Source: a virus
Length of the DNA stretch: 64,000 bases
Reading direction: 5' to 3' (one strand)
IMG/VR virus record: IMGVR_UViG_3300032893_000008
Coordinates: 55,224 to 119,223 of that record
The notes beneath the pieces were generated by a model that saw only the letters and a list, made by a program, of their open reading frames with translations, was not told the origin of the DNA and searched no databases. Position numbers and translations under genes: made by a program. Below, piece after piece: positions 443 to 52,707 of this stretch (position 1 is its first letter; the number at the start of each line of letters is the position of its first letter).

Positions 443-1569
443 GCAATTTTACGGCGCAGCTCTTCCAGGGGCTCGCCGAAGAGGTCGAGAAGGAGGCGCC
501 GGAATTCTGGCGTTCCATTCGAATTGTTGTGGAGGATATTCGAAAAAGCAGACACCGAACGCCCTAGATATGCGGCGAGCGTGCCATGGGTAGACGGCAA
601 TCCTTTCTCCCTGGCAAGCTGGAAAATCCGGAACTTTGACGCCCGGCCGCGGGCGCGAACACGGGGAACGGACCGAGATGATTTCGACGTAAAAACCAAT
701 CCGGAATTTGCCAACTCTTCAGAGACGATGGCGTATATTTCCGGATTCATCAGATCGATGGCGGTATCAGCAACGTCATCGAAACTTACGTGAGTGGTAA
801 GATTGATGTCCGTCAGACGGTTGCGGAGGAGAGAAGACAGCTCCTCGCTGCTTCGGACCTTCACGGCGCCACTGGGATCAAGCACCTTGGACTGAAGCGT
901 TCTCTTCAGATCCTTGTTCATACCACCCAAGGCTTCATGAAACTTCCCGATCGCTTCATCGATAGGCATCCCGGGGGAGATCGAATCGATCAGATTCTGG
1001 ATCGTATTCCGGTATCCATCGATATCGACCACGTGCCCGCCGTGACGGGCGGCTGTGTAACTTCGGGATAGCGAGATGAACTTCCGGCGAAGATGGATGT
1101 ATACGAGAGTAGACTCTTTCGCGCACCCCTCCCCGTGGCGAAGATTCTTCTGGATCCAACGGAGCTGCTGAAGGACGAAAATACGACCGTCCTGAATCAG
1201 GTCCTCAACGGACTTGCCGAGACGGCCGATCGAAGCACGAGGATCCAAGGTGGAGCAACTGTTTCCTCCGGCCCAGTAGCGAAGGACGTGATCGTTGATC
1301 ATCTTCTTGATCATCGGATCGTATTTACGAATCTGATCATCCGTTACTAGCTCCGGATTCCCTTTCACTCTCGACTTCGGAGTGTAGGTTTTACCCGGCT
1401 GGAGATGCCCCCACCGTCGCCCGGACTTGATGTCCGATACCATGGGTTGCTGGATGTTGTAACGCTTAGCGATGACCCGCTGCGGGTCTGTGGAACGGAG
1501 GATCTCCAGCGCTTGCTCTTCCGTCAGCTTTTTGCGACGAATGGGGACGTTCTCTTCCATGTGGGGCAC
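439..1569 (-). CDS. Putative sigma-factor-like transcription regulator (HTH + sigma region-2-like + XRE-like HTH); true start possibly ATG 1560
   Basis: N-term KLTEEQALEI..QRVIAKRYNIQQPMVSDIKSGRRW HTH; SVEDLIQDGRIFVL resembles sigma region 2.2; C-term LAAYLGRSVSAFSNIL HTH. Confidence 0.5.
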   Translation of the reverse strand: MPHMEENVPIRRKKLTEEQALEILRSTDPQRVIAKRYNIQQPMVSDIKSGRRWGHLQPGKTYTPKSRVKGNPELVTDDQIRKYDPMIKKMINDHVLRYWAGGNSCSTLDPRASIGRLGKSVEDLIQDGRIFVLQQLRWIQKNLRHGEGCAKESTLVYIHLRRKFISLSRSYTAARHGGHVVDIDGYRNTIQNLIDSISPGMPIDEAIGKFHEALGGMNKDLKRTLQSKVLDPSGAVKVRSSEELSSLLRNRLTDINLTTHVSFDDVADTAIDLMNPEIYAIVSEELANSGLVFTSKSSRSVPRVRARGRASKFRIFQLAREKGLPSTHGTLAAYLGRSVSAFSNILHNNSNGTPEFRRLLLDLFGEPLEELRRKIA

Positions 1570-41421: not shown

Positions 41422-43814
41422 TAGTGATGAGCCAAGACGTCGAGAGACTCACGAGCGCTAGGCGCGCGGTTCTTGTAGTTCGCTGCCTCGGAGATAGGAA
41501 CCTGCGCTCCGCCCACCTGGACTTCGTAACCGCCTTCACCGGCCCGACCTTTGATGATCGCATCGGTGACCATCTTGAGACCACCGTTGGCCCAGTCTTT
41601 CATGGCCTGGTTCAGAACCATGATCCCCTGGTTAGCGAGCCCCGAGGCGAGGAGTTCGGTATTCGTGAGCTGATTCAGGAAAACGTCCATATCCTTGATC
41701 CGCTGATCACGCGCTTCGAAGTCAACGCCGCCCTCAGGGATACGACCTTCACCGCGCATGAACCCCCGACGCAAGCCGGTCGTCTGTAGGACATCCTGGA
41801 GCGTGCCTTCGCGAGACATGATGAGCCGGTTGACACGCGGATCCGCACTACCCGGAACGCTCGCGAAAGCGCCACTGATAGCCTGGCCGGTCGCCATAGC
41901 GAAGTTCTGGATGTCAGCCATCGATCCACCCATGCGGCCGCCGCCGCGGGAGGCTTCTTCCGCAACGATCCGCTGGAACTCAGGATTGGACCATTGGCTG
42001 GGGTCATAACGACCGAAAAGGAGCACCAAGCGGGATCTCGTGCCGGGGTCGACATGTCCGAAGAACCGGTCAACGATACGCTGGGCGGTCATCATGTTCA
42101 TCAAGCCCTGTAGACCGGTGCGCTGGTTAAGTTCGCCCATGATCGTATTCATGCCACCTTGGGCGACGTCCGCCGCACGACCAGGGCCAACGCCCGACAT
42201 ACCCTGCGCAATGCGCATGGCCTGTTCGAAGATACCGGTCCCGGCGGCACCGCCGAAACCGCCGGCGCGATACGCCATGGAGGTGATCGCATCCACTTGG
42301 CGCTTGCCGATCTCAGAGTTGTCGTTACCGCGGGCAACAGCTCGCGACATCAGATCTTCCAATTCTTGCTGGGCGTTACCGACATCGCCGTGCATGAGCC
42401 GTTGGATCTGAGCTTGCTGGAATTCAGCGCCGATGCCACTACGGCCCATCCTCAACATGCTCGGGAGATTCGCCCGTCCGAAGGGAGCCATGCCCATAAG
42501 ACCACCGAGCATCTCCTCCTCACCGAAGCCATACCGGGCCGTCATCGGCATCAGCTGTCCGGTGGACATGCCGATCATGTCCATCGAGGAGAGCCCAAAC
42601 GCTGAACGGAAGCCGAGGCGGCTCTGCGCTCTCTCCAGGCCGAGATTACCGGACATGATGTCGATTTTATTGATGCCGGATAGACCCTGAAGAGCCTGCA
42701 ACGTTGCTTCAGCTGCCTTACTCTCGTAGGGCGCACCGCCCTGCATATAACTCAGGAAGTCCATGCCGAAGCCAGAAACCGCCGCTCCAGCTCCACCGAT
42801 TAGCGCTCCTGGAACGGCACCAACACCACCGAAGATACTACCGCCGGCGGCACCACCAGCGGCCCCAATGCCTACCTTACCGGCCTGCTGCAGCACGGCA
42901 TTGAGGTAAGCGTTACTGCCTACAACACCGGCGCGAGCGCGCATGCCCGGGTTCAACGTCACCAGGATGTCTTCCGCGTTCATGCGGAGTCCCGCCTGGA
43001 GGGTCGCGGTATTGAGATCCTGAACTTTTGCGGCTTGACCAATGGCCAGACCAGTGCTACCGAGAGCACGATCCATGACATCCATCACCTTCTTGATCAC
43101 GCCGGCCGTGAGGAGGCCAGCGAGCGCGGCCGCGATCGGATCGGCCCCGCCCCCGCCCCCGCCCCCGCCGGCGGCCTGGATGATGGACTCCTTGATGCGG
43201 GTTCGATCCTCCATCTCCCGCTGAGCAGCGCTAGCCCGGCCGATGTCACCAGCTGCAACTGCTTCCTCGCGCTCCTTCTTGAGGCGCCCAAGGATGTTCG
43301 TCGTGGAGTCCAGCTCGGTCTTGAACTTGTTGAGTGCCAGGAGGGTAGCCTTGGACTCCGAATCCTCAGCACCGCTCAGACCCTTGATACGCTCTGACAG
43401 GAACTCGCTTGCCCCACGGCCACCCGTCATCATCAGAATGTGCTTCTCGCGCTCGCTCATCCCACGCTGGGACATCGCCATGGACAGAGCGGGATCGTCT
43501 TGCCGGAAACGCTGATAGGCGTCACGACTATCTACCGGATCGTTCGGAACGCCACCCGGCGATACGGTGCGACCAAAGATGTCGCGGATGCCCGGGCCGG
43601 CGCCGCGCATCGACGTGCCGGGGGAAGAGGTGACGTTCAGACCTTGATTTCCACCGCCAGTGCCGGCCAGGGGGCCAATAAGTTCGACACTCGCTGGAAT
43701 CCGGATTCCCTGCTGAACTACCTGCTGCAGGCGAGCCATTAGCCCCTGGAAATCCTTAAGGATACCCTCGACATCGGCGACGAACTTCAGCTCGAATTTG
43801 TGACTTCCGGGCAT
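41421..43814 (-). CDS. Tape measure protein (putative)
   Basis: Gly/Ala/Met-rich helical protein after chaperone genes, before hub. Confidence 0.65.
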   Translation of the reverse strand: MPGSHKFELKFVADVEGILKDFQGLMARLQQVVQQGIRIPASVELIGPLAGTGGGNQGLNVTSSPGTSMRGAGPGIRDIFGRTVSPGGVPNDPVDSRDAYQRFRQDDPALSMAMSQRGMSEREKHILMMTGGRGASEFLSERIKGLSGAEDSESKATLLALNKFKTELDSTTNILGRLKKEREEAVAAGDIGRASAAQREMEDRTRIKESIIQAAGGGGGGGGADPIAAALAGLLTAGVIKKVMDVMDRALGSTGLAIGQAAKVQDLNTATLQAGLRMNAEDILVTLNPGMRARAGVVGSNAYLNAVLQQAGKVGIGAAGGAAGGSIFGGVGAVPGALIGGAGAAVSGFGMDFLSYMQGGAPYESKAAEATLQALQGLSGINKIDIMSGNLGLERAQSRLGFRSAFGLSSMDMIGMSTGQLMPMTARYGFGEEEMLGGLMGMAPFGRANLPSMLRMGRSGIGAEFQQAQIQRLMHGDVGNAQQELEDLMSRAVARGNDNSEIGKRQVDAITSMAYRAGGFGGAAGTGIFEQAMRIAQGMSGVGPGRAADVAQGGMNTIMGELNQRTGLQGLMNMMTAQRIVDRFFGHVDPGTRSRLVLLFGRYDPSQWSNPEFQRIVAEEASRGGGRMGGSMADIQNFAMATGQAISGAFASVPGSADPRVNRLIMSREGTLQDVLQTTGLRRGFMRGEGRIPEGGVDFEARDQRIKDMDVFLNQLTNTELLASGLANQGIMVLNQAMKDWANGGLKMVTDAIIKGRAGEGGYEVQVGGAQVPISEAANYKNRAPSARESLDVLAHH

Positions 43815-45041: not shown

Positions 45042-45491
45042 TTAGGCGCCGTAGCGCCCACTCATGATCGGAATCATCGAGAGGACGAAGAAATTGAAGC
45101 TCGCATGGACGAAGATCGGAGCCCAGAGCCCCAGTCGGCGGTAGAGATAGCCCAGAACTGCCCCCATCGCGATCGCCTCGAAAACCTGCGGAAGATGGCC
45201 TGGTCCATTCAGGAGGTGTGCCAGGCCGAAGAGGAGGGAGGAGAGCGCTAAAGCGACGTTGTCGGAAAGCTTAAGGACTTTCGTGAAAAGCAAGTCCATG
45301 ACCAGATAGCGAAAAATCGCTTCCTCTGCGCATCCAACCTCCAAGTCGTCCAGGGCGCTCCAGAATAGGAACTCAACTACATCGTTATGATTTTCAACGA
45401 CTTTTCCGATCGAGGCAGCGAAAGTGCCTAGCAGAAGGGCGGACCAGAAGCCCGTAAGGATCACGATACCAGTGGTAACGAGGCGCTTCAT
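45042..45491 (-). CDS. CPBP/Abi (CAAX-like) intramembrane metalloprotease
   Basis: EEAIFR, FGLAH, HASFN. Confidence 0.85.
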   Translation of the reverse strand: MKRLVTTGIVILTGFWSALLLGTFAASIGKVVENHNDVVEFLFWSALDDLEVGCAEEAIFRYLVMDLLFTKVLKLSDNVALALSSLLFGLAHLLNGPGHLPQVFEAIAMGAVLGYLYRRLGLWAPIFVHASFNFFVLSMIPIMSGRYGA

Positions 45492-45505
45492 GTTCCCCCC
45501 CCTGG

Positions 45506-45898
45506 TTACTTCAGGGTGCCTTCCACCGTGCTCTTCCAGGCGTCATAGATCTCCTGAGCGAGAGCGAGAGCGTCGTCGCGCTGCTTCACGGTCTCCTCCT
45601 GCCGCCGGTGGCAATCCGCCAGGAGCTTGCGGACGCCTTCGTAGGCGAGCTTGTGCTCGTGCAGCTTCGCCTGGAGGCTGGCGATGAATCGCGCGTTCAC
45701 GGCCGTGACCGGATCGGCCTGCCGGCGAGCGTATTTGAGCTGCCCCTTCAGGGCCTTGTTCTCGTTACGCAGGAGCTGCAGTTCGGTCGGGCTATTCGCC
45801 TCCCGACGGAAAAGATAGTAGGTGCCTGCAGCGAGGGAGCCTGCATACACAATCAGGCCGAAGATGAACGAGAGAGAAACGTAATCGACGAAGTTCAT
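45506..45898 (-). CDS. TM + coiled-coil protein
   Basis: N-terminal TM then heptads. Confidence 0.55.
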   Translation of the reverse strand: MNFVDYVSLSFIFGLIVYAGSLAAGTYYLFRREANSPTELQLLRNENKALKGQLKYARRQADPVTAVNARFIASLQAKLHEHKLAYEGVRKLLADCHRRQEETVKQRDDALALAQEIYDAWKSTVEGTLK

Positions 45899-46242
45899 TT
45901 GGTCCTCTTCACTCTTACCGTCACGGACTTGCCGGCGTTGAGCATCTTGGTGATTGCGTCCTTGGTCCCGCGGGATTCTCCATCCCAGAAAGCGATCATC
46001 TCGTCTGCCGCTGCCGCGATTTTGCTATTTCGCACCAGAGGGGCGTGGTTCCCGAACAGCTCGTAGTCCGGTAGGAAGGCTTCGACCTGTAGTCCGTCCT
46101 TGCGCGCCTGATCGGCCGCCCAGGAGTCGACTCCCGCGGCCCCGCCAGACACGATGATAGTGTCTGGCGTGAGCGCGTGGACGAATGCCCGGACTTGCTC
46201 TTCGTCCGGGTATCCGCGGCTACCTACGATCGCGAGCCTCAC
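45895..46242 (-). CDS. SLOG-family (YspA/DprA-like) nucleotide-binding protein
   Basis: AIVGSR, IVSGGAAGVDSWA, RNSKI, AFWDGESRGT. Confidence 0.85.
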   Translation of the reverse strand: MRLAIVGSRGYPDEEQVRAFVHALTPDTIIVSGGAAGVDSWAADQARKDGLQVEAFLPDYELFGNHAPLVRNSKIAAAADEMIAFWDGESRGTKDAITKMLNAGKSVTVRVKRTK

Positions 46243-46841
46243 TTCGAACCCGGGGCGTAGTTCGCGTGGATCCCGCGCATGCCTTCGACCGTCAGATCGT
46301 GAACGGGCAAGGTAGGCGCTTCCATGATGGTCGACGGCGTCGGCGTCGAGACTGGCAGCGTGATCGGACCGGTGAGGTTGTAGAACTTGAAGTCGGTCCG
46401 AACGGGACCGGCGAGCACGCTACCATCGCCTGCGAAGTAGGTCGTGAAGACCGACAGCTTGGCCGTCGTCTCGACTGCCGAACCCTTGTAGACGCTCGTG
46501 ACGTAGAGCCCGTCGATGCCCGTCCAGACGTTCTCGATCTTGGAATCGATCACGACCTTGTCCTCCATGGCCAGGCCGAGCGCGCCCCAGTAGCTCACTC
46601 CGGCGCCGTCCTGCATGATCCAGATCGGGTAGTCGTCGACCGTCGTGGTCTGCAGATTCCCGCCGGGATCCTTGCCGGTGACGTCGATCGAGGCCAGGTA
46701 GGCGCCACCAACGACGGGCGAGACGTTGGAGACCCCCGACTTGGTCTTCTCGCAGCCGATCGTGACGGCGAGAGTGAGGAGGAGAACGAAGAAGGCGATG
46801 AGGACGCGTGCGGAACTGCGTGCGAAGATGTTTCCGGTCAT
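46239..46841 (-). CDS. Putative lipoprotein
   Basis: Hydrophobic signal ending TIGC; SD-like AAGGG. Confidence 0.6.
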   Translation of the reverse strand: MTGNIFARSSARVLIAFFVLLLTLAVTIGCEKTKSGVSNVSPVVGGAYLASIDVTGKDPGGNLQTTTVDDYPIWIMQDGAGVSYWGALGLAMEDKVVIDSKIENVWTGIDGLYVTSVYKGSAVETTAKLSVFTTYFAGDGSVLAGPVRTDFKFYNLTGPITLPVSTPTPSTIMEAPTLPVHDLTVEGMRGIHANYAPGSK

Positions 46842-46881
46842 GTGTTTCCCTTTCTGTAGGGGATAATACCCCCGTGATTCA

Positions 46882-46931
46882 GTTTTAGCACCATGATAGA
46901 AGCTTGACAAGCTTTTTCTTCATGGTAAAGT
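46882..46931. promoter_or_regulatory. Back-to-back sigma70 promoters sharing one -35 palindrome
   Basis: AAGCTTG-A-CAAGCTT (46900-46914); + TTGACA-16-TAAAGT; - TTGTCA-17-TAAAAC. Confidence 0.6.
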
Positions 46932-46937
46932 TGGGAC

Positions 46938-47084
46938 GTCCGAAGCGCCTCCGAGGAGAGGGACTTCCCTGAGCCGTATTGGGCCTATAAGGACGAGCGG
47001 GGTAGGGGGCGGAGGGTTGGTTGGCGAATGCATCCCGTGCAAACGGGGGAGCAACAAGCACCACGTGTAGGAGGCGCTTCGGAC
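46938..47084 (+). ncRNA. Candidate structured ncRNA of unknown class (~147 nt)
   Basis: Perfect 15-bp terminal stem GTCCGAAGCGCCTCC/GGAGGCGCTTCGGAC starting at predicted +1; internal GCAA-tetraloop hairpin; no credible ORF. Confidence 0.65.
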
Positions 47085-47167
47085 TAGTAGCGCTTGTGAC
47101 TGCCGAACCAGTAGTCCAGGATCAGCAGCACGATCACGCACCAGAAGAAAAACCAGCCGAATTTCAT
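47084..47167 (-). CDS. 27-aa hydrophobic peptide
   Basis: MKFGWFFFWCVIVLLILDYWFGSHKRY; ATGA-coupled to upstream protease. Confidence 0.45.
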   Translation of the reverse strand: MKFGWFFFWCVIVLLILDYWFGSHKRY

Positions 47168-47646
47168 GCGTTTTCTCGCAGCCTACGGGTGCACTCTCGA
47201 CAGAATCGCCCGAATGATACGTTCACCGGGCACATGAGACAGAACGGATCGGGATGATGCTTCAGCCCGCGGACGTGCCCTAGCTCGTGGCGTAGCACCC
47301 ATCGAGCCATGATGTTCTTGAAGGGTCCGAACAGACTGAGCCCACGCCACGAGAGCGTTACTACCGAGTTGGCGGTATCGAACTGCCACTGGGGATAGGT
47401 CCAGCCTCGTTCGCGATACGTTCCTTGCTTTACGATGACGATCTGGTCGTAGTTGCGGCAAAATTCAACGACTTCGCCTACGTCTCGATGTGGAAGGTGA
47501 ACTACAGCTACGGAATCAAATCCCATGCTGAGCGGAGCATCATTCGCGACGTTGACGTTCTCGATCGACGGCAAGTCGTCGTTGAGCCCGGTGGTATAGA
47601 CAACGATTAGCCTCACGGTAGCAGCCTCGCGAAAGTGCGAAGGCAT
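47164..47646 (-). CDS. Zinc metalloprotease (metzincin-like)
   Basis: HELGHVRGLKH, CLM Met-turn, FCREC; true start likely ~47616. Confidence 0.75.
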   Translation of the reverse strand: MPSHFREAATVRLIVVYTTGLNDDLPSIENVNVANDAPLSMGFDSVAVVHLPHRDVGEVVEFCRNYDQIVIVKQGTYRERGWTYPQWQFDTANSVVTLSWRGLSLFGPFKNIMARWVLRHELGHVRGLKHHPDPFCLMCPVNVSFGRFCRECTRRLRENA

Positions 47647-49380: not shown

Positions 49381-49884
49381 TTACTTGTAATGGTAGGCGT
49401 CCGCTTTCGCCCAGACTTCTGTAGCTTGATGGTAGGGGTCCCAAGCTACCCTTAGTTCGGGGTGCTCATGGCAGTAGAGATGCCCTAGCTCATGGACTAG
49501 CGTGCGTTCCCATTCTTTATCCTGTAAGTTCTCGTCCTTCCAGGAAACTCGAATGTCCCGAACATCTACCGCTACGACGCCCATGACAACTTTCTCTATC
49601 CATTCAATTGTAGGAGCCCAGGGATCTTTCGGATAGAGGATAGTGAACCAATCGGGAACGAAGCGAAAGTCGTATTGCGCCAAGAGCTGATCGGAGAGTC
49701 CCCAGAAGGCTTGAGCAGATCGGAATTTCGCAAGCAGCTCATCGTAGTAGGGCGTGCTACCGCAAAGCGCTACCTCCACAGAATGCCCGATACCTAGATC
49801 AACTACGATAGACGCTGGCGAAGTAAGCTTAGGAAGGAAAGCTCTAGCTACGAAAACATGAAGATTGTAGAGAAATCGGCGCAC
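49381..49884 (-). CDS. HExxH metallopeptidase-like protein
   Basis: TLVHELGH; GGTAGAAT-6nt-GTG. Confidence 0.6.
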   Translation of the reverse strand: MRRFLYNLHVFVARAFLPKLTSPASIVVDLGIGHSVEVALCGSTPYYDELLAKFRSAQAFWGLSDQLLAQYDFRFVPDWFTILYPKDPWAPTIEWIEKVVMGVVAVDVRDIRVSWKDENLQDKEWERTLVHELGHLYCHEHPELRVAWDPYHQATEVWAKADAYHYK

Positions 49885-52418: not shown

Positions 52419-52490
52419 CTCCCGAGGCACGAATCGAACGTGCGTCTGCCGGTTCAAAGCCGGCGGTCCTAGCCACTGAACGACTCGGAA
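52419..52490 (-). tRNA. tRNA-Gln(UUG)
   Basis: Full cloverleaf: GCCGG-CTTTGAA-CCGGC; GCACG-TTCGATT-CGTGC; no encoded CCA. Confidence 0.9.
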
Positions 52491-52561
52491 CTAGCGAGGA
52501 AGGGGTCGAACCTTCACTTTCGCGCTCAGAACGCGACGTGCTACCGCTACACTACCCGCCA
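52491..52561 (-). tRNA. tRNA-Gln(CUG)
   Basis: TCGCG-TTCTGAG-CGCGA; GAAGG-TTCGACC-CCTTC. Confidence 0.88.
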
Positions 52562-52634
52562 TGGCTTCGTAGGGAATCGCACCCTCTTCCCCGGTTTAAA
52601 AGACCGGTGCTCATCTGACTAAAGCTTCGAAGCC
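52562..52634 (-). tRNA. tRNA-Lys(UUU), atypical
   Basis: CCGGT-CTTTTAA-ACCGG; T-loop TGCGATT, A at position 8, D-loop lacks GG. Confidence 0.75.
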
Positions 52635-52636
52635 GA

Positions 52637-52707
52637 TCTGGGTGGCGAGAATCGAACTCGCTCTTTCGGGTTCCAGGCCCGGAATGCAACCACTACACCA
52701 CACCCAG
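52637..52707 (-). tRNA. tRNA-Pro(UGG)
   Basis: CTGGGTG/CACCCAG-A; loop CCTGGAA (C33); GCGAG-TTCGATT-CTCGC. Confidence 0.82.

Follow-up and report, generated by a model that had tools for sequence, protein, structure and literature searches.

A non-coding gap of 243 nt lies between the gene of a 27-aa hydrophobic peptide and a lipoprotein-like gene in the window, which is the whole stretch of 64,000 nt analysed here and belongs to the record of an uncultivated large phage from a wetland sample, 119,223 bp long and 72% complete, the gene absences given below being those of this record. The gap is enclosed by an unbroken block of minus-strand genes (26833-50339), largely tail genes, in which the gene junctions are tight or overlapping except at the gap itself. 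Both flanking genes are located on the minus strand, which agrees with the preliminary description of this DNA, where a candidate RNA had been proposed to run against the surrounding genes.

The peptide ORF MKFGWFFFWCVIVLLILDYWFGSHKRY (47084..47167, minus strand) possesses a gene-like coding score (+0.226) and a Kyte-Doolittle maximum of 1.97 in a 19-aa window. Its ATG and the upstream gene's TGA overlap as ATGA, and its TAG stop codon (47084-47086) shares its last base with one arm of an inverted repeat; no family match was obtained for the peptide, nor any toxin family among those searched. Next to it, the gene at 47164..47646 (minus strand) encodes a 160-aa zincin-like protein with an HELGH motif, which displayed weak matches to Peptidase_M10 and M54 below the curated cut-offs and has a homologue, P0002, of 47% identity. 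On the other side of the gap, a 200-aa protein (46239..46841, minus strand) bears an N-terminal hydrophobic signal-like segment and a Cys, and is termed lipoprotein-like by eye only, no family having been found for it in Pfam, PHROGs or NCBIfam; its start ATG (46839-46841) is situated 97 nt beyond the repeat.

Coding potential of the gap

The gap scores as non-coding in all six frames: codon log-odds range from -0.17 to -0.45, while genes average +0.21, and scores as low as these occur in 0 to 1.5% of 327 real-gene windows. The presence of a tRNA with the anticodon CUA prompted the idea that the gap is translated, in which case an amber-suppressor tRNA would read through the peptide's TAG to give a 109-aa product joined to the lipoprotein-like start by an ATGA overlap, and the stem formed by the repeat would act as a read-through stimulator. 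With TAG read as Q, the frame is indeed open through two TAGs up to a TGA overlapping the next ATG; stop codons are, however, scarce by chance on a C-rich strand. Moreover, the extension itself scores as non-coding (-0.17, a value reached or undercut by 1.5% of the real-gene windows), its GC3 is 0.55 compared with 0.67 +/- 0.07 in genes, TAG is the ordinary stop in 13 of the 103 ORFs of at least 100 aa, and recoding raises the coding content only from 105,324 to 106,542 bases. Recoding of TAG as Q was ruled out by these codon statistics, and translation of the gap is accordingly considered very improbable.

The inverted repeat

Within the gap, a perfect 15-bp inverted repeat, GTCCGAAGCGCCTCC / GGAGGCGCTTCGGAC, is constituted by a 5' arm at 46938-46952 and a 3' arm at 47070-47084 on the plus strand, which are separated by 117 nt and would pair as a closing stem (P1), and the perfect stem announced in the preliminary description was thereby found base for base. 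Perfect inverted repeats of at least 15 nt with a loop of 20-400 nt number two in the 119,223-bp genome and zero in ten mononucleotide shuffles, while about 0.04 per genome are expected by arithmetic under equal base frequencies; the repeat exceeds chance. Among the 22 genome gaps of at least 90 nt, a perfect repeat longer than 10 bp is harbored by only two, namely the studied gap and a terminator locus, and the genome's other 15-bp repeat is a canonical intrinsic terminator with TGTTTTTCT directly after the repeat. At the studied repeat, no intrinsic terminator was reported by the terminator scan, T-runs are absent from the flanks on both strands, and no U-tract follows the arm on either strand. 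A 14-bp repeat at genome positions 1790-2020 was dropped, as it sits within a plausible 128-aa gene.

The predicted promoter region

Immediately before the repeat, a sigma70-type promoter with an extended -10 element is predicted at 46904..46931 on the plus strand, with a consensus match of 10/12 in addition to the TG. It is composed of the -35 hexamer TTGACA (46904-46909), a 16-nt spacer, the TG at 46923-46924 and the -10 hexamer TAAAGT (46926-46931), and six bases separate the -10 from the stem, which places the predicted +1 at about 46938, the first stem base. When both strands of the 119 kb were scanned, this predicted promoter was one of five strict sites and one of 15 relaxed sites, and so both the coincidence of the predicted +1 with the stem, as first described, and a rank among the best sigma70-type sites of the genome are supported. 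Three of the other four strict sites directly precede ORFs and the fourth precedes the tRNA cluster, so the strict promoter-like sites look functional in this phage. Among the strong promoter-like sites followed up, the only other one that lacks a downstream ORF of at least 40 aa stands before a tRNA cluster, hence before stable RNA.

The -35 hexamer is overlaid by a perfect 7-1-7 palindrome, AAGCTTGACAAGCTT (46900..46914), which is nested in a looser palindrome made up of CCATGA (46891-46896) and TCATGG (46920-46925). No second copy exists in the genome, where the closest other sites carry three mismatches, and the palindrome is weak evidence when taken alone, since about seven 7-1-7 palindromes are expected by chance in 119 kb (arithmetic). 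This palindrome is possibly an operator, or a -35 region common to back-to-back promoters. A weak candidate promoter directed toward the lipoprotein-like gene was discerned by eye at 46882..46910 on the minus strand, consisting of TTGTCA (46910-46905), a 17-nt spacer with a TG, and TAAAAC (46887-46882), and it would share the palindromic -35 region with the plus-strand promoter; the promoter scan did not report it because its -10 lacks the final T.

One may ask whether the promoter-like site and the repeat are unrelated leftovers of a lost gene or of a module recombination junction, without a dedicated function. The locus occurs once, with no conservation shown, its core is indistinguishable from shuffles as described below, and the genes around it are poorly conserved accessory ones, all of which would suit such remnants; however, a perfect 15-bp repeat is rarely expected in a genome of this size, and a near-perfect extended -10 promoter starting exactly at the repeat would be an unlikely coincidence, which makes this explanation rather unlikely.

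Folding and composition of the core

The 117-nt core between the arms (46953..47069) is G-rich on the plus strand, where its GC skew of 0.33 belongs to the top 0.9% of 117-nt windows. The full 147 nt fold better than shuffles on the plus strand (z -3.7 to -4.1) and on the minus strand (z -3.7 to -3.8), whereas the inner 117 nt alone gave z scores of +0.72 and +0.94, respectively, with 230/300 and 249/300 shuffles folding at least as well. As the inner z scores are positive, the folding signal is that of the closing stem only and is equal on both strands, and the structured core of the preliminary description was not upheld.

On the minus-strand mRNA the stem has the same stability and so does not discriminate between the strands; the functional molecule could be that mRNA. 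The repeat would then close a C-rich, poorly structured 117-nt loop after the peptide stop and would either direct the processing or stability of the mRNA between the cistrons, or load Rho at a C-rich, G-poor site and so attenuate read-through into the lipoprotein-like gene and the tail genes; the G-richness of the plus strand would be a mere complement, and the plus-strand promoter would be separate or incidental. The significance of the stem on that strand, the strong C bias of the core, and a core slightly less structured than shuffles, in keeping with the low structure expected of Rho loading sites, are consistent with this proposal, as is the position of the gap as the sole sizeable one in a tight operon; translation could also remodel the stem, since the stop codon abuts it. 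Nevertheless, the position of the predicted +1 on the first stem base is left unexplained, the U-tract is absent, unlike in the intrinsic terminator used elsewhere in the phage, the 15-bp helix is shorter than classical RNase III sites tend to be, and comparative support is lacking, so that a function on the minus strand appears doubtful.

Some properties are confined to the plus strand. The MFE of the 147 nt is -67.2 there versus -55.9 on the minus strand, and three G-U pairs of a predicted inner helix are possible on the plus strand only. Two short motifs of the preliminary description were located, namely AGGG-ACTT-CCCT at 46959-46970 and the hairpin CCCGT-GCAA-ACGGG with its GNRA-type loop at 47034-47047 (plus strand), the latter being present in both the MFE and the centroid folds with its significance unproven. 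The G-rich run GGGGTAGGGGGCGGAGGGTTGGTTGG (46999..47024, plus strand) comprises three tracts of at least three G together with GG tracts, and its G4Hunter score of 2.16 is the third highest in the genome. It had been called G-quadruplex-capable, a designation that is weak at best: the high score and two-tier patterns stand, but no canonical motif (four tracts of at least three G, loops of 1-7 nt) exists at the locus, the genome's canonical motifs being elsewhere.

A stand-alone, early, end-clamped RNA of about 147 nt that acts in trans, its G- and GGA-rich core titrating a host or phage protein or forming a G-rich tertiary motif, would fit the promoter, the +1 on the stem and the non-coding evidence, and would accommodate the G-U pairs and lower MFE of the plus strand, the high-scoring G-run and the lack of any match to an Rfam family, tRNA or tmRNA. 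Protein sponges of the CsrB/RsmZ type are small RNAs with several GGA motifs and a strong promoter, which is the arrangement predicted here; unlike in CsrB/RsmZ, however, the GGA count is, by a rough estimate, about what a G content of 40% predicts, the GGA motifs lie outside hairpin loops in the predicted fold, and Rfam returned no match. The trans-acting RNA is further disfavored by a core that folds no better than shuffles, by the absence of a canonical G-quadruplex motif, by the failure to find a homologue or paralogue in any collection searched, by the lack of a TROVE or reverse transcriptase partner gene in the record, and by complementary matches elsewhere in the phage genome that do not exceed 12 nt, the chance level; it is regarded as unlikely. 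Quite unlikely, too, is the reading in which the locus encodes the first example seen of a new class of early RNAs in phages: a molecule of about 147 nt with ends locked by the 15-bp helix and a loosely structured G-/GGA-rich core, which host polymerase would transcribe against the late-gene block and which would act in trans by titrating a host RNA-binding protein or nuclease as a sponge or decoy, or would adopt a non-canonical G-rich tertiary motif. No specific support was found for the sponge or decoy, ribozyme or scaffold roles suggested at first.

Searches for related sequences

Searching the window against Rfam 15 yielded only four tRNA matches, all away from the locus, and with E values up to 10 the sole match in 46800-47250 was a chance one to mir-6715 (15.3 bits versus a gathering score of 82). 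ARAGORN detected three tRNAs in the window, all at 52419-52707, and the view that the candidate is neither tRNA nor tmRNA is in line with these results. The 119-kb record was found to contain no gene for a reverse transcriptase (RVT_1), a TROVE/Ro protein, a resolvase or an integrase/tyrosine recombinase.

No second copy of the locus was found in the genome; across the genome and the metagenome contig L002, a single-sequence covariance model (R1) recovered only the locus itself, and the same model gave nothing in Myxococcus phage Mx1. Comparison of the locus and the surrounding 6 kb with 50,697 phage records by blastn revealed no match at the locus. The sole blastn match from these queries was the phosphoesterase gene of a Tunturiibacter phage. 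Among viral contigs, no relative was reached from the zincin-like, lipoprotein-like, tape-measure-like, P0002 or DNA polymerase protein anchors or from an alignment (A2) of a 592-aa tail protein, and exact DNA patterns gave 0 matches for the G-run and 0 for the two stem arms with their gap. Metagenome contigs searched with an alignment (A1) yielded one contig, L002 (1,166 bp), with a zincin homologue of 41% identity, downstream of which other genes and no comparable gap are found; genome contigs searched with A1 and A2 gave nothing. A syntenic locus was not found across the viral, metagenome and genome contig collections.

Closer relatives were revealed by protein searches and were seen as proteins only, where P0002 and P0005 come from a JGI contig of 167,639 bp, P0006 from an NCBI/Logan contig of 86,840 bp and P0004 from a contig of 3,413 bp. 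The only cultured relative is Myxococcus phage Mx1, with 24.8% identity over the 592-aa tail protein, and blastn of the locus against Mx1 gave chance fragments only, the best of them falling at the start of a coding region (MKKLDKK) and another representing an ordinary promoter. The reading as a new phage RNA is consequently based on a single sequence, no homologue for covariation having emerged from the collections searched. Among sequencing runs, the locus was encountered in one DNA run (X1), which may be the one the record derives from, and in no RNA run, and one Logan contig of X1 spans the stretch without a single difference or joint; as assembled contigs cannot show rare inverted forms, this result is silent on inversion and on expression.

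These searches also bear on the idea that the locus operates at the DNA level, as an R-loop-type origin, an invertible segment, a protein-binding inverted repeat or a MITE-like insertion. The origins oriF and oriG of phage T4 consist of a promoter and a downstream element that forms a persistent R-loop, and an A+T-rich unwinding element is needed (PMC3016281). In comparison with what is described there, the locus likewise presents a predicted promoter without a gene, set among genes that may be late, and the phage encodes T4-like proteins of replication and recombination (UvsX-like, Dda-like and SbcC-like); non-template G clusters follow the promoter, with 42-43% G over the first 150 nt and 23% after; perfect inverted repeats also flank a short segment. 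In contrast with those origins, the A+T-rich unwinding element is absent and the region is G+C-rich (0.62-0.64, in surroundings of roughly 0.5-0.65). Furthermore, the cumulative GC skew has no turning point here, 35 comparable G-cluster motifs occur in the genome, and no match to a resolvase or tyrosine recombinase, of the kind that an inverton would use, was found in the record. The possibility raised in the preliminary description that the repeat marks the ends of a MITE-like element was not borne out either, as the locus occurs once in the genome, its exact arms match nothing in the viral collection, and the flanks ...GGGAC and TAGTA... share no direct repeat, hence no target-site duplication. 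An element acting as DNA is decidedly unlikely.

Comparison with known RNA systems

Long helices that pair the 5' and 3' ends of an RNA with its own promoter are a feature of the bacterial Y RNA YrlA, 6S RNA and the retron msr-msd, and the predicted RNA would resemble them in this respect; unlike in these RNAs, no central-bubble rod, tRNA-like module or long msd hairpin is present in the predicted folds. The 15-bp repeat flanks the core in the manner of the a1/a2 repeats of retrons, which is a resemblance only, as no RVT_1 is encoded in the record and no plus-strand gene lies downstream. For YrlA, neither a TROVE gene in the record nor a match to a Y RNA family was found.

Lambda-like phages and Bacillus prophages are well-known carriers of cis-antisense switches, which to our knowledge have scarcely been charted in large environmental phages. 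The OOP RNA of lambda is a short RNA that is transcribed from a strong constitutive promoter opposite an operon, overlaps the 3' end of a coding region, ends at an intrinsic terminator and forms a duplex with the mRNA that leads to cleavage. The RNA predicted here would similarly be a short one from a strong promoter opposite an operon, and would differ from OOP in overlapping a spacer and in having no terminator found. Among the type I antitoxins of Bacillus prophages, SR4/bsrG and RatA/txpA are further examples of RNAs with 3' overlap. [quoted passage not shown] As in SR6/yonT, the RNA predicted at the present locus would have its own strong promoter, would converge on a small hydrophobic-peptide gene and would lie between cistrons of a phage mRNA. 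The locus departs from the prophage antitoxin systems in that the peptide gene lacks its own promoter and the RNA may share only a single base with the ORF; neither a terminator nor sequence similarity was detected, and the phage is a large one of lytic type rather than a prophage.

A proposed cis-antisense RNA

The best reading of the locus, to which we assign a probability of roughly 0.35, is that of an early small RNA with clamped ends that is cis-antisense to the spacer between the peptide and lipoprotein-like genes. It builds on the repeat, the promoter match, the non-coding status of the gap and the gene layout, from which the firing of the promoter, the RNA ends and the mechanism are predicted. 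The gap would be a non-coding control region, in which a host-type sigma70 promoter would fire a short plus-strand RNA head-on against about 23 kb of minus-strand genes. The transcript would start at the 15-bp helix, its 5' end pairing with the sequence 132 nt downstream, and the resulting molecule of about 147 nt, clamped at both ends, may be shielded from end-dependent nucleases.

Such an RNA would pair perfectly with the spacer that begins at the peptide stop and separates the two cistrons on the polycistronic mRNA of the minus strand, and it is this complementarity that makes antisense action in cis the most likely mode. Pairing with the spacer may bring about double-strand-specific cleavage or, together with convergent transcription, may limit read-through, by which the expression of the hydrophobic peptide and of the downstream lipoprotein-like gene would be uncoupled or tuned.

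The stop codon of a small hydrophobic peptide gene abuts the repeat, which counts for the antisense reading. Of the features of type I systems with 3' overlap, the small hydrophobic peptide gene is represented by the 27-aa ORF with its gene-like codon score; the RNA expected from the predicted promoter would be complementary to the message directly 3' of the stop, up to a presumed RNA end. Several observations count against it. No plus-strand terminator follows the stem, so the 3' end of the RNA is a presumed one; an RNA ending at 47084 would overlap the peptide ORF by one base only; the peptide gene lacks a promoter and is ATGA-coupled to its upstream neighbor, unlike most type I toxins; and the zincin locus of L002 is followed by other genes, without such a gap. 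In addition, the sigma70 consensus promoter suggests early expression, and the antisense RNA and its target might not coexist, since the opposing tail-gene block may be late.

Implications

The locus is a single unreplicated candidate, and its value is that of a well-defined target with an exact promoter, +1 and helix. If the RNA is real, it would be a promoter-driven small RNA directed head-on within a block of tail and accessory genes, in a little-known lineage of large phages to which Myxococcus phage Mx1 is distantly related, and it may control the expression of a hydrophobic peptide and a lipoprotein-like gene.

Inverted Repeat and Predicted Promoter

The arms of the element, located at 46938-46952 and 47070-47084, are complementary over the full 15 bp and enclose 117 nt. 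Two perfect inverted repeats of at least 15 nt with a 20-400 nt loop exist in the whole genome, the element included, against none in ten shuffled genomes and about 0.04 per genome calculated for equal base frequencies; among the 22 gaps of at least 90 nt, only those that hold these two repeats have perfect arms of more than 10 bp. The other 15-bp repeat is a canonical intrinsic terminator on the minus strand (genome 27768-27821; 7768-7821 of L005, a stretch of the record), which lies between two minus-strand genes and comprises an unusually long perfect stem, a 24-nt loop and then TGTTTTTCT. Downstream of the element's repeat, a T-run is absent on both strands.

A predicted plus-strand promoter at 46904-46931, composed of TTGACA, a 16-nt spacer and TG-n-TAAAGT, matches at 10 of 12 positions, and its -10 lies six bases from 46938; therefore, the predicted start coincides with the first stem base, as the preliminary description had proposed. 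As observations, both the repeat and the predicted promoter are real and exceed chance. Across both strands of the 119 kb, the strict promoter pattern occurs five times; of the remaining four sites, three lie immediately ahead of ORFs, and the one at genome 21435 precedes a tRNA cluster, for which it is read as the promoter. A relaxed scan returned 15 sites, six of them with an ORF of at least 40 aa beginning 4-9 nt past the -10, a spacing which suggests leaderless mRNAs from which phage early genes would be expressed. Examples of sigma70-type promoter-like sites with a close start codon are window 51171 (+), 54625 (-) and 1598 (-), and start codons 4-9 nt after the -10 are also seen at genome 3358 (+) and 46838 (-).

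No gene was found behind the element's promoter; within 200 nt the plus strand offers a single ORF of at least 40 aa, a 78-aa TTG frame that is antisense to the neighbouring genes and extends into them. The promoter occupies the gap portion closest to the lipoprotein-like gene (46239-46841) and is directed away from it, toward the 27-aa hydrophobic peptide gene (47084-47167). Its -35 falls within a perfect 15-bp palindrome, whose opposite strand offers, by eye and uncalled by the promoter scan, TTGTCA-17-TGnTAAAAC, which could serve the lipoprotein-like gene as a weak promoter placed back to back with the first.

Fold and Composition of the Core

All sequence features listed in the preliminary description were recovered at the coordinates it gave, and its by-eye impression of no resemblance to tRNA or tmRNA agrees with ARAGORN, which finds neither at the locus. 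The claim of a structured core did not survive: the 147-nt molecule folds with a z of about -4 on either strand, and the inner 117 nt gives +0.72 (+) and +0.94 (-), so that the thermodynamic signal stems from the closing stem only and the small hairpins, that with the GNRA loop among them, do not go beyond chance level for G+C-rich sequence. The quadruplex claim did not survive either: the G-run lacks a fourth G3 tract, although its G4Hunter score still ranks third in the genome. Canonical quadruplex motifs are found elsewhere, and the strongest G4-type motif of the genome, CCCCGCCCCCGCCCCCGCCCCC (window 43145-43166 (-), G4Hunter -3.04), encodes a poly-Gly run in a 797-aa tape-measure-like protein. 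The GC skew of the core, 0.33, belongs to the top 0.9% of windows. An element of the minus-strand mRNA, for instance a C-rich site for Rho loading or for processing that is closed off by the stem, itself equally stable on that strand, is rather unlikely.

Rfam at gathering thresholds gave no match for the element in the window or the remaining genome, and with E up to 10 the locus returned a chance microRNA match only. That the element is a novel type of RNA acting in trans is judged fairly improbable; a single sequence does not allow a new class to be claimed. The record (72% complete) contains no detectable gene for a reverse transcriptase, a TROVE/Ro protein, a resolvase or a tyrosine recombinase, a result that speaks against a retron, a Ro-Y RNA pair of the phage and a phage-encoded inverton.

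A function at the DNA level is quite improbable. The arms as ends of a MITE are unsupported, because neither covariance model nor k-mers disclosed a second copy in the genome, 2.9 million viral contigs contained no exact-arm match and no flanking direct repeat was found. As a T4-type R-loop origin, the element, with a G+C of 0.62-0.64, lacks the A+T-rich unwinding element that defines such origins (PMC3016281).

Coding Status and tRNA Genes

With a codon log-odds model trained on 60 ORFs of at least 200 aa, real 80-codon windows scored +0.21 on average (5th percentile +0.03) and wrong frames -0.38. All six frames of 46842-47084 scored between -0.17 and -0.45, with a GC3 of 0.55-0.57 versus 0.67 +/- 0.07 in genes, and the flanking 27-aa ORF (+0.23) and lipoprotein-like gene (+0.32) are gene-like; the gap is non-coding. 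The 27-aa ORF stops at TAG, and were TAG read as Q, its frame would cross the whole element and end where its stop overlaps the start of the next gene as ATGA. The genome does encode an amber-suppressor tRNA with anticodon CUA (genome 20871-20948, L005:871-948, minus strand; ARAGORN label 'Pyl', Rfam tRNA 57.7 bits), located in the tRNA cluster behind the TG-extended sigma70-type promoter at genome 21435. Read-through coding was nevertheless rejected, as very improbable, because the extension scores as non-coding, TAG terminates 13 of 103 long ORFs and its recoding raises coding density almost not at all.

In the same operon, 168 nt between tRNA-Met and the suppressor tRNA (L005:949-1116 (-)) have no Rfam match and fold with an MFE of -72.8 (z -2.68; 2 of 200 shuffles equally good), and may represent a further stable RNA or else a degenerate pair of tRNAs. 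Two tRNA-like genes carry long insertions, at 1431-1534 (+) of L004, another stretch of the record, and at L005:1193-1291 (-); one of them matches the Rfam tRNA model over 104 nt, whereas the other is tRNA-like with an additional hairpin in its D region and is uncalled by ARAGORN, and introns or odd tRNAs are possible.

Gene Neighborhood and Relatives

Every convincing gene in 26833-50339 lies on the minus strand, with mostly tight or overlapping junctions, in keeping with the proposal that the element is transcribed against its surroundings. Read along the minus strand, the gap is directly preceded by a zincin-like gene and the peptide gene, joined by ATGA coupling; the zincin-like protein has an HELGH motif and matches M10 and M54 weakly. 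The TAG of the peptide gene ends on the very base with which the stem arm begins; the 243-nt gap, the lipoprotein-like gene, a SLOG/YspA-like gene (PF10686, E 2.3e-09), a CPBP/Rce1-like intramembrane protease gene (PF02517, E 6.7e-18) and the tail genes follow. This accessory cluster upstream of the tail genes (window 45045-46242 and 47164-47646, minus strand), including the zincin-like, SLOG/YspA-like and CPBP/Rce1-like genes, could serve anti-defence or superinfection exclusion. A second HELGH protein is encoded at 49381-49884.

The linear IMG/VR record (119,223 bp, estimated 72% complete), of which the window spans bases 55224-119223, encodes portal, large terminase, family-A-type DNA polymerase, several helicases, UvsX-like, SbcC-like, GroEL and ribonucleotide reductase proteins and many tRNAs. 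The sole sequencing run listed with the locus is a wetland metagenome, possibly the source of the record, and the run search listed no RNA run. Protein searches disclosed relatives at 43-49% identity on contigs of 167,639, 86,840 and 3,413 bp; among cultured phages the sole relative is Myxococcus phage Mx1, 24.8% identical across a 592-aa tail-region protein, in which neither blastn nor the covariance model found a counterpart of the locus. Scans of viral, genome and metagenome collections, for which six proteins or alignments and two DNA patterns served as anchors, yielded no syntenic locus; all they recovered was one non-syntenic contig of 1,166 bp that encodes a zincin homologue. That the element has no function is fairly improbable, its repeat and promoter exceeding chance.

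Proposed Function

A stand-alone non-coding RNA is plausible, and the simplest reading, given tentatively a probability of roughly one in three, is a cis-antisense regulatory RNA. The host polymerase would produce it from the plus-strand promoter; the RNA would begin at a base-paired 5' end, and its full complementarity to the intercistronic spacer in the polycistronic mRNA that runs the other way would make it a regulator in cis. Lambda OOP is one likeness for such an RNA. Another is SR6 of prophage SPbeta, which is located between two cistrons and overlaps a small toxin gene at the gene's 3' end (PMC5848175). The element is probably a small RNA of the phage, antisense or regulatory, which is a known kind.
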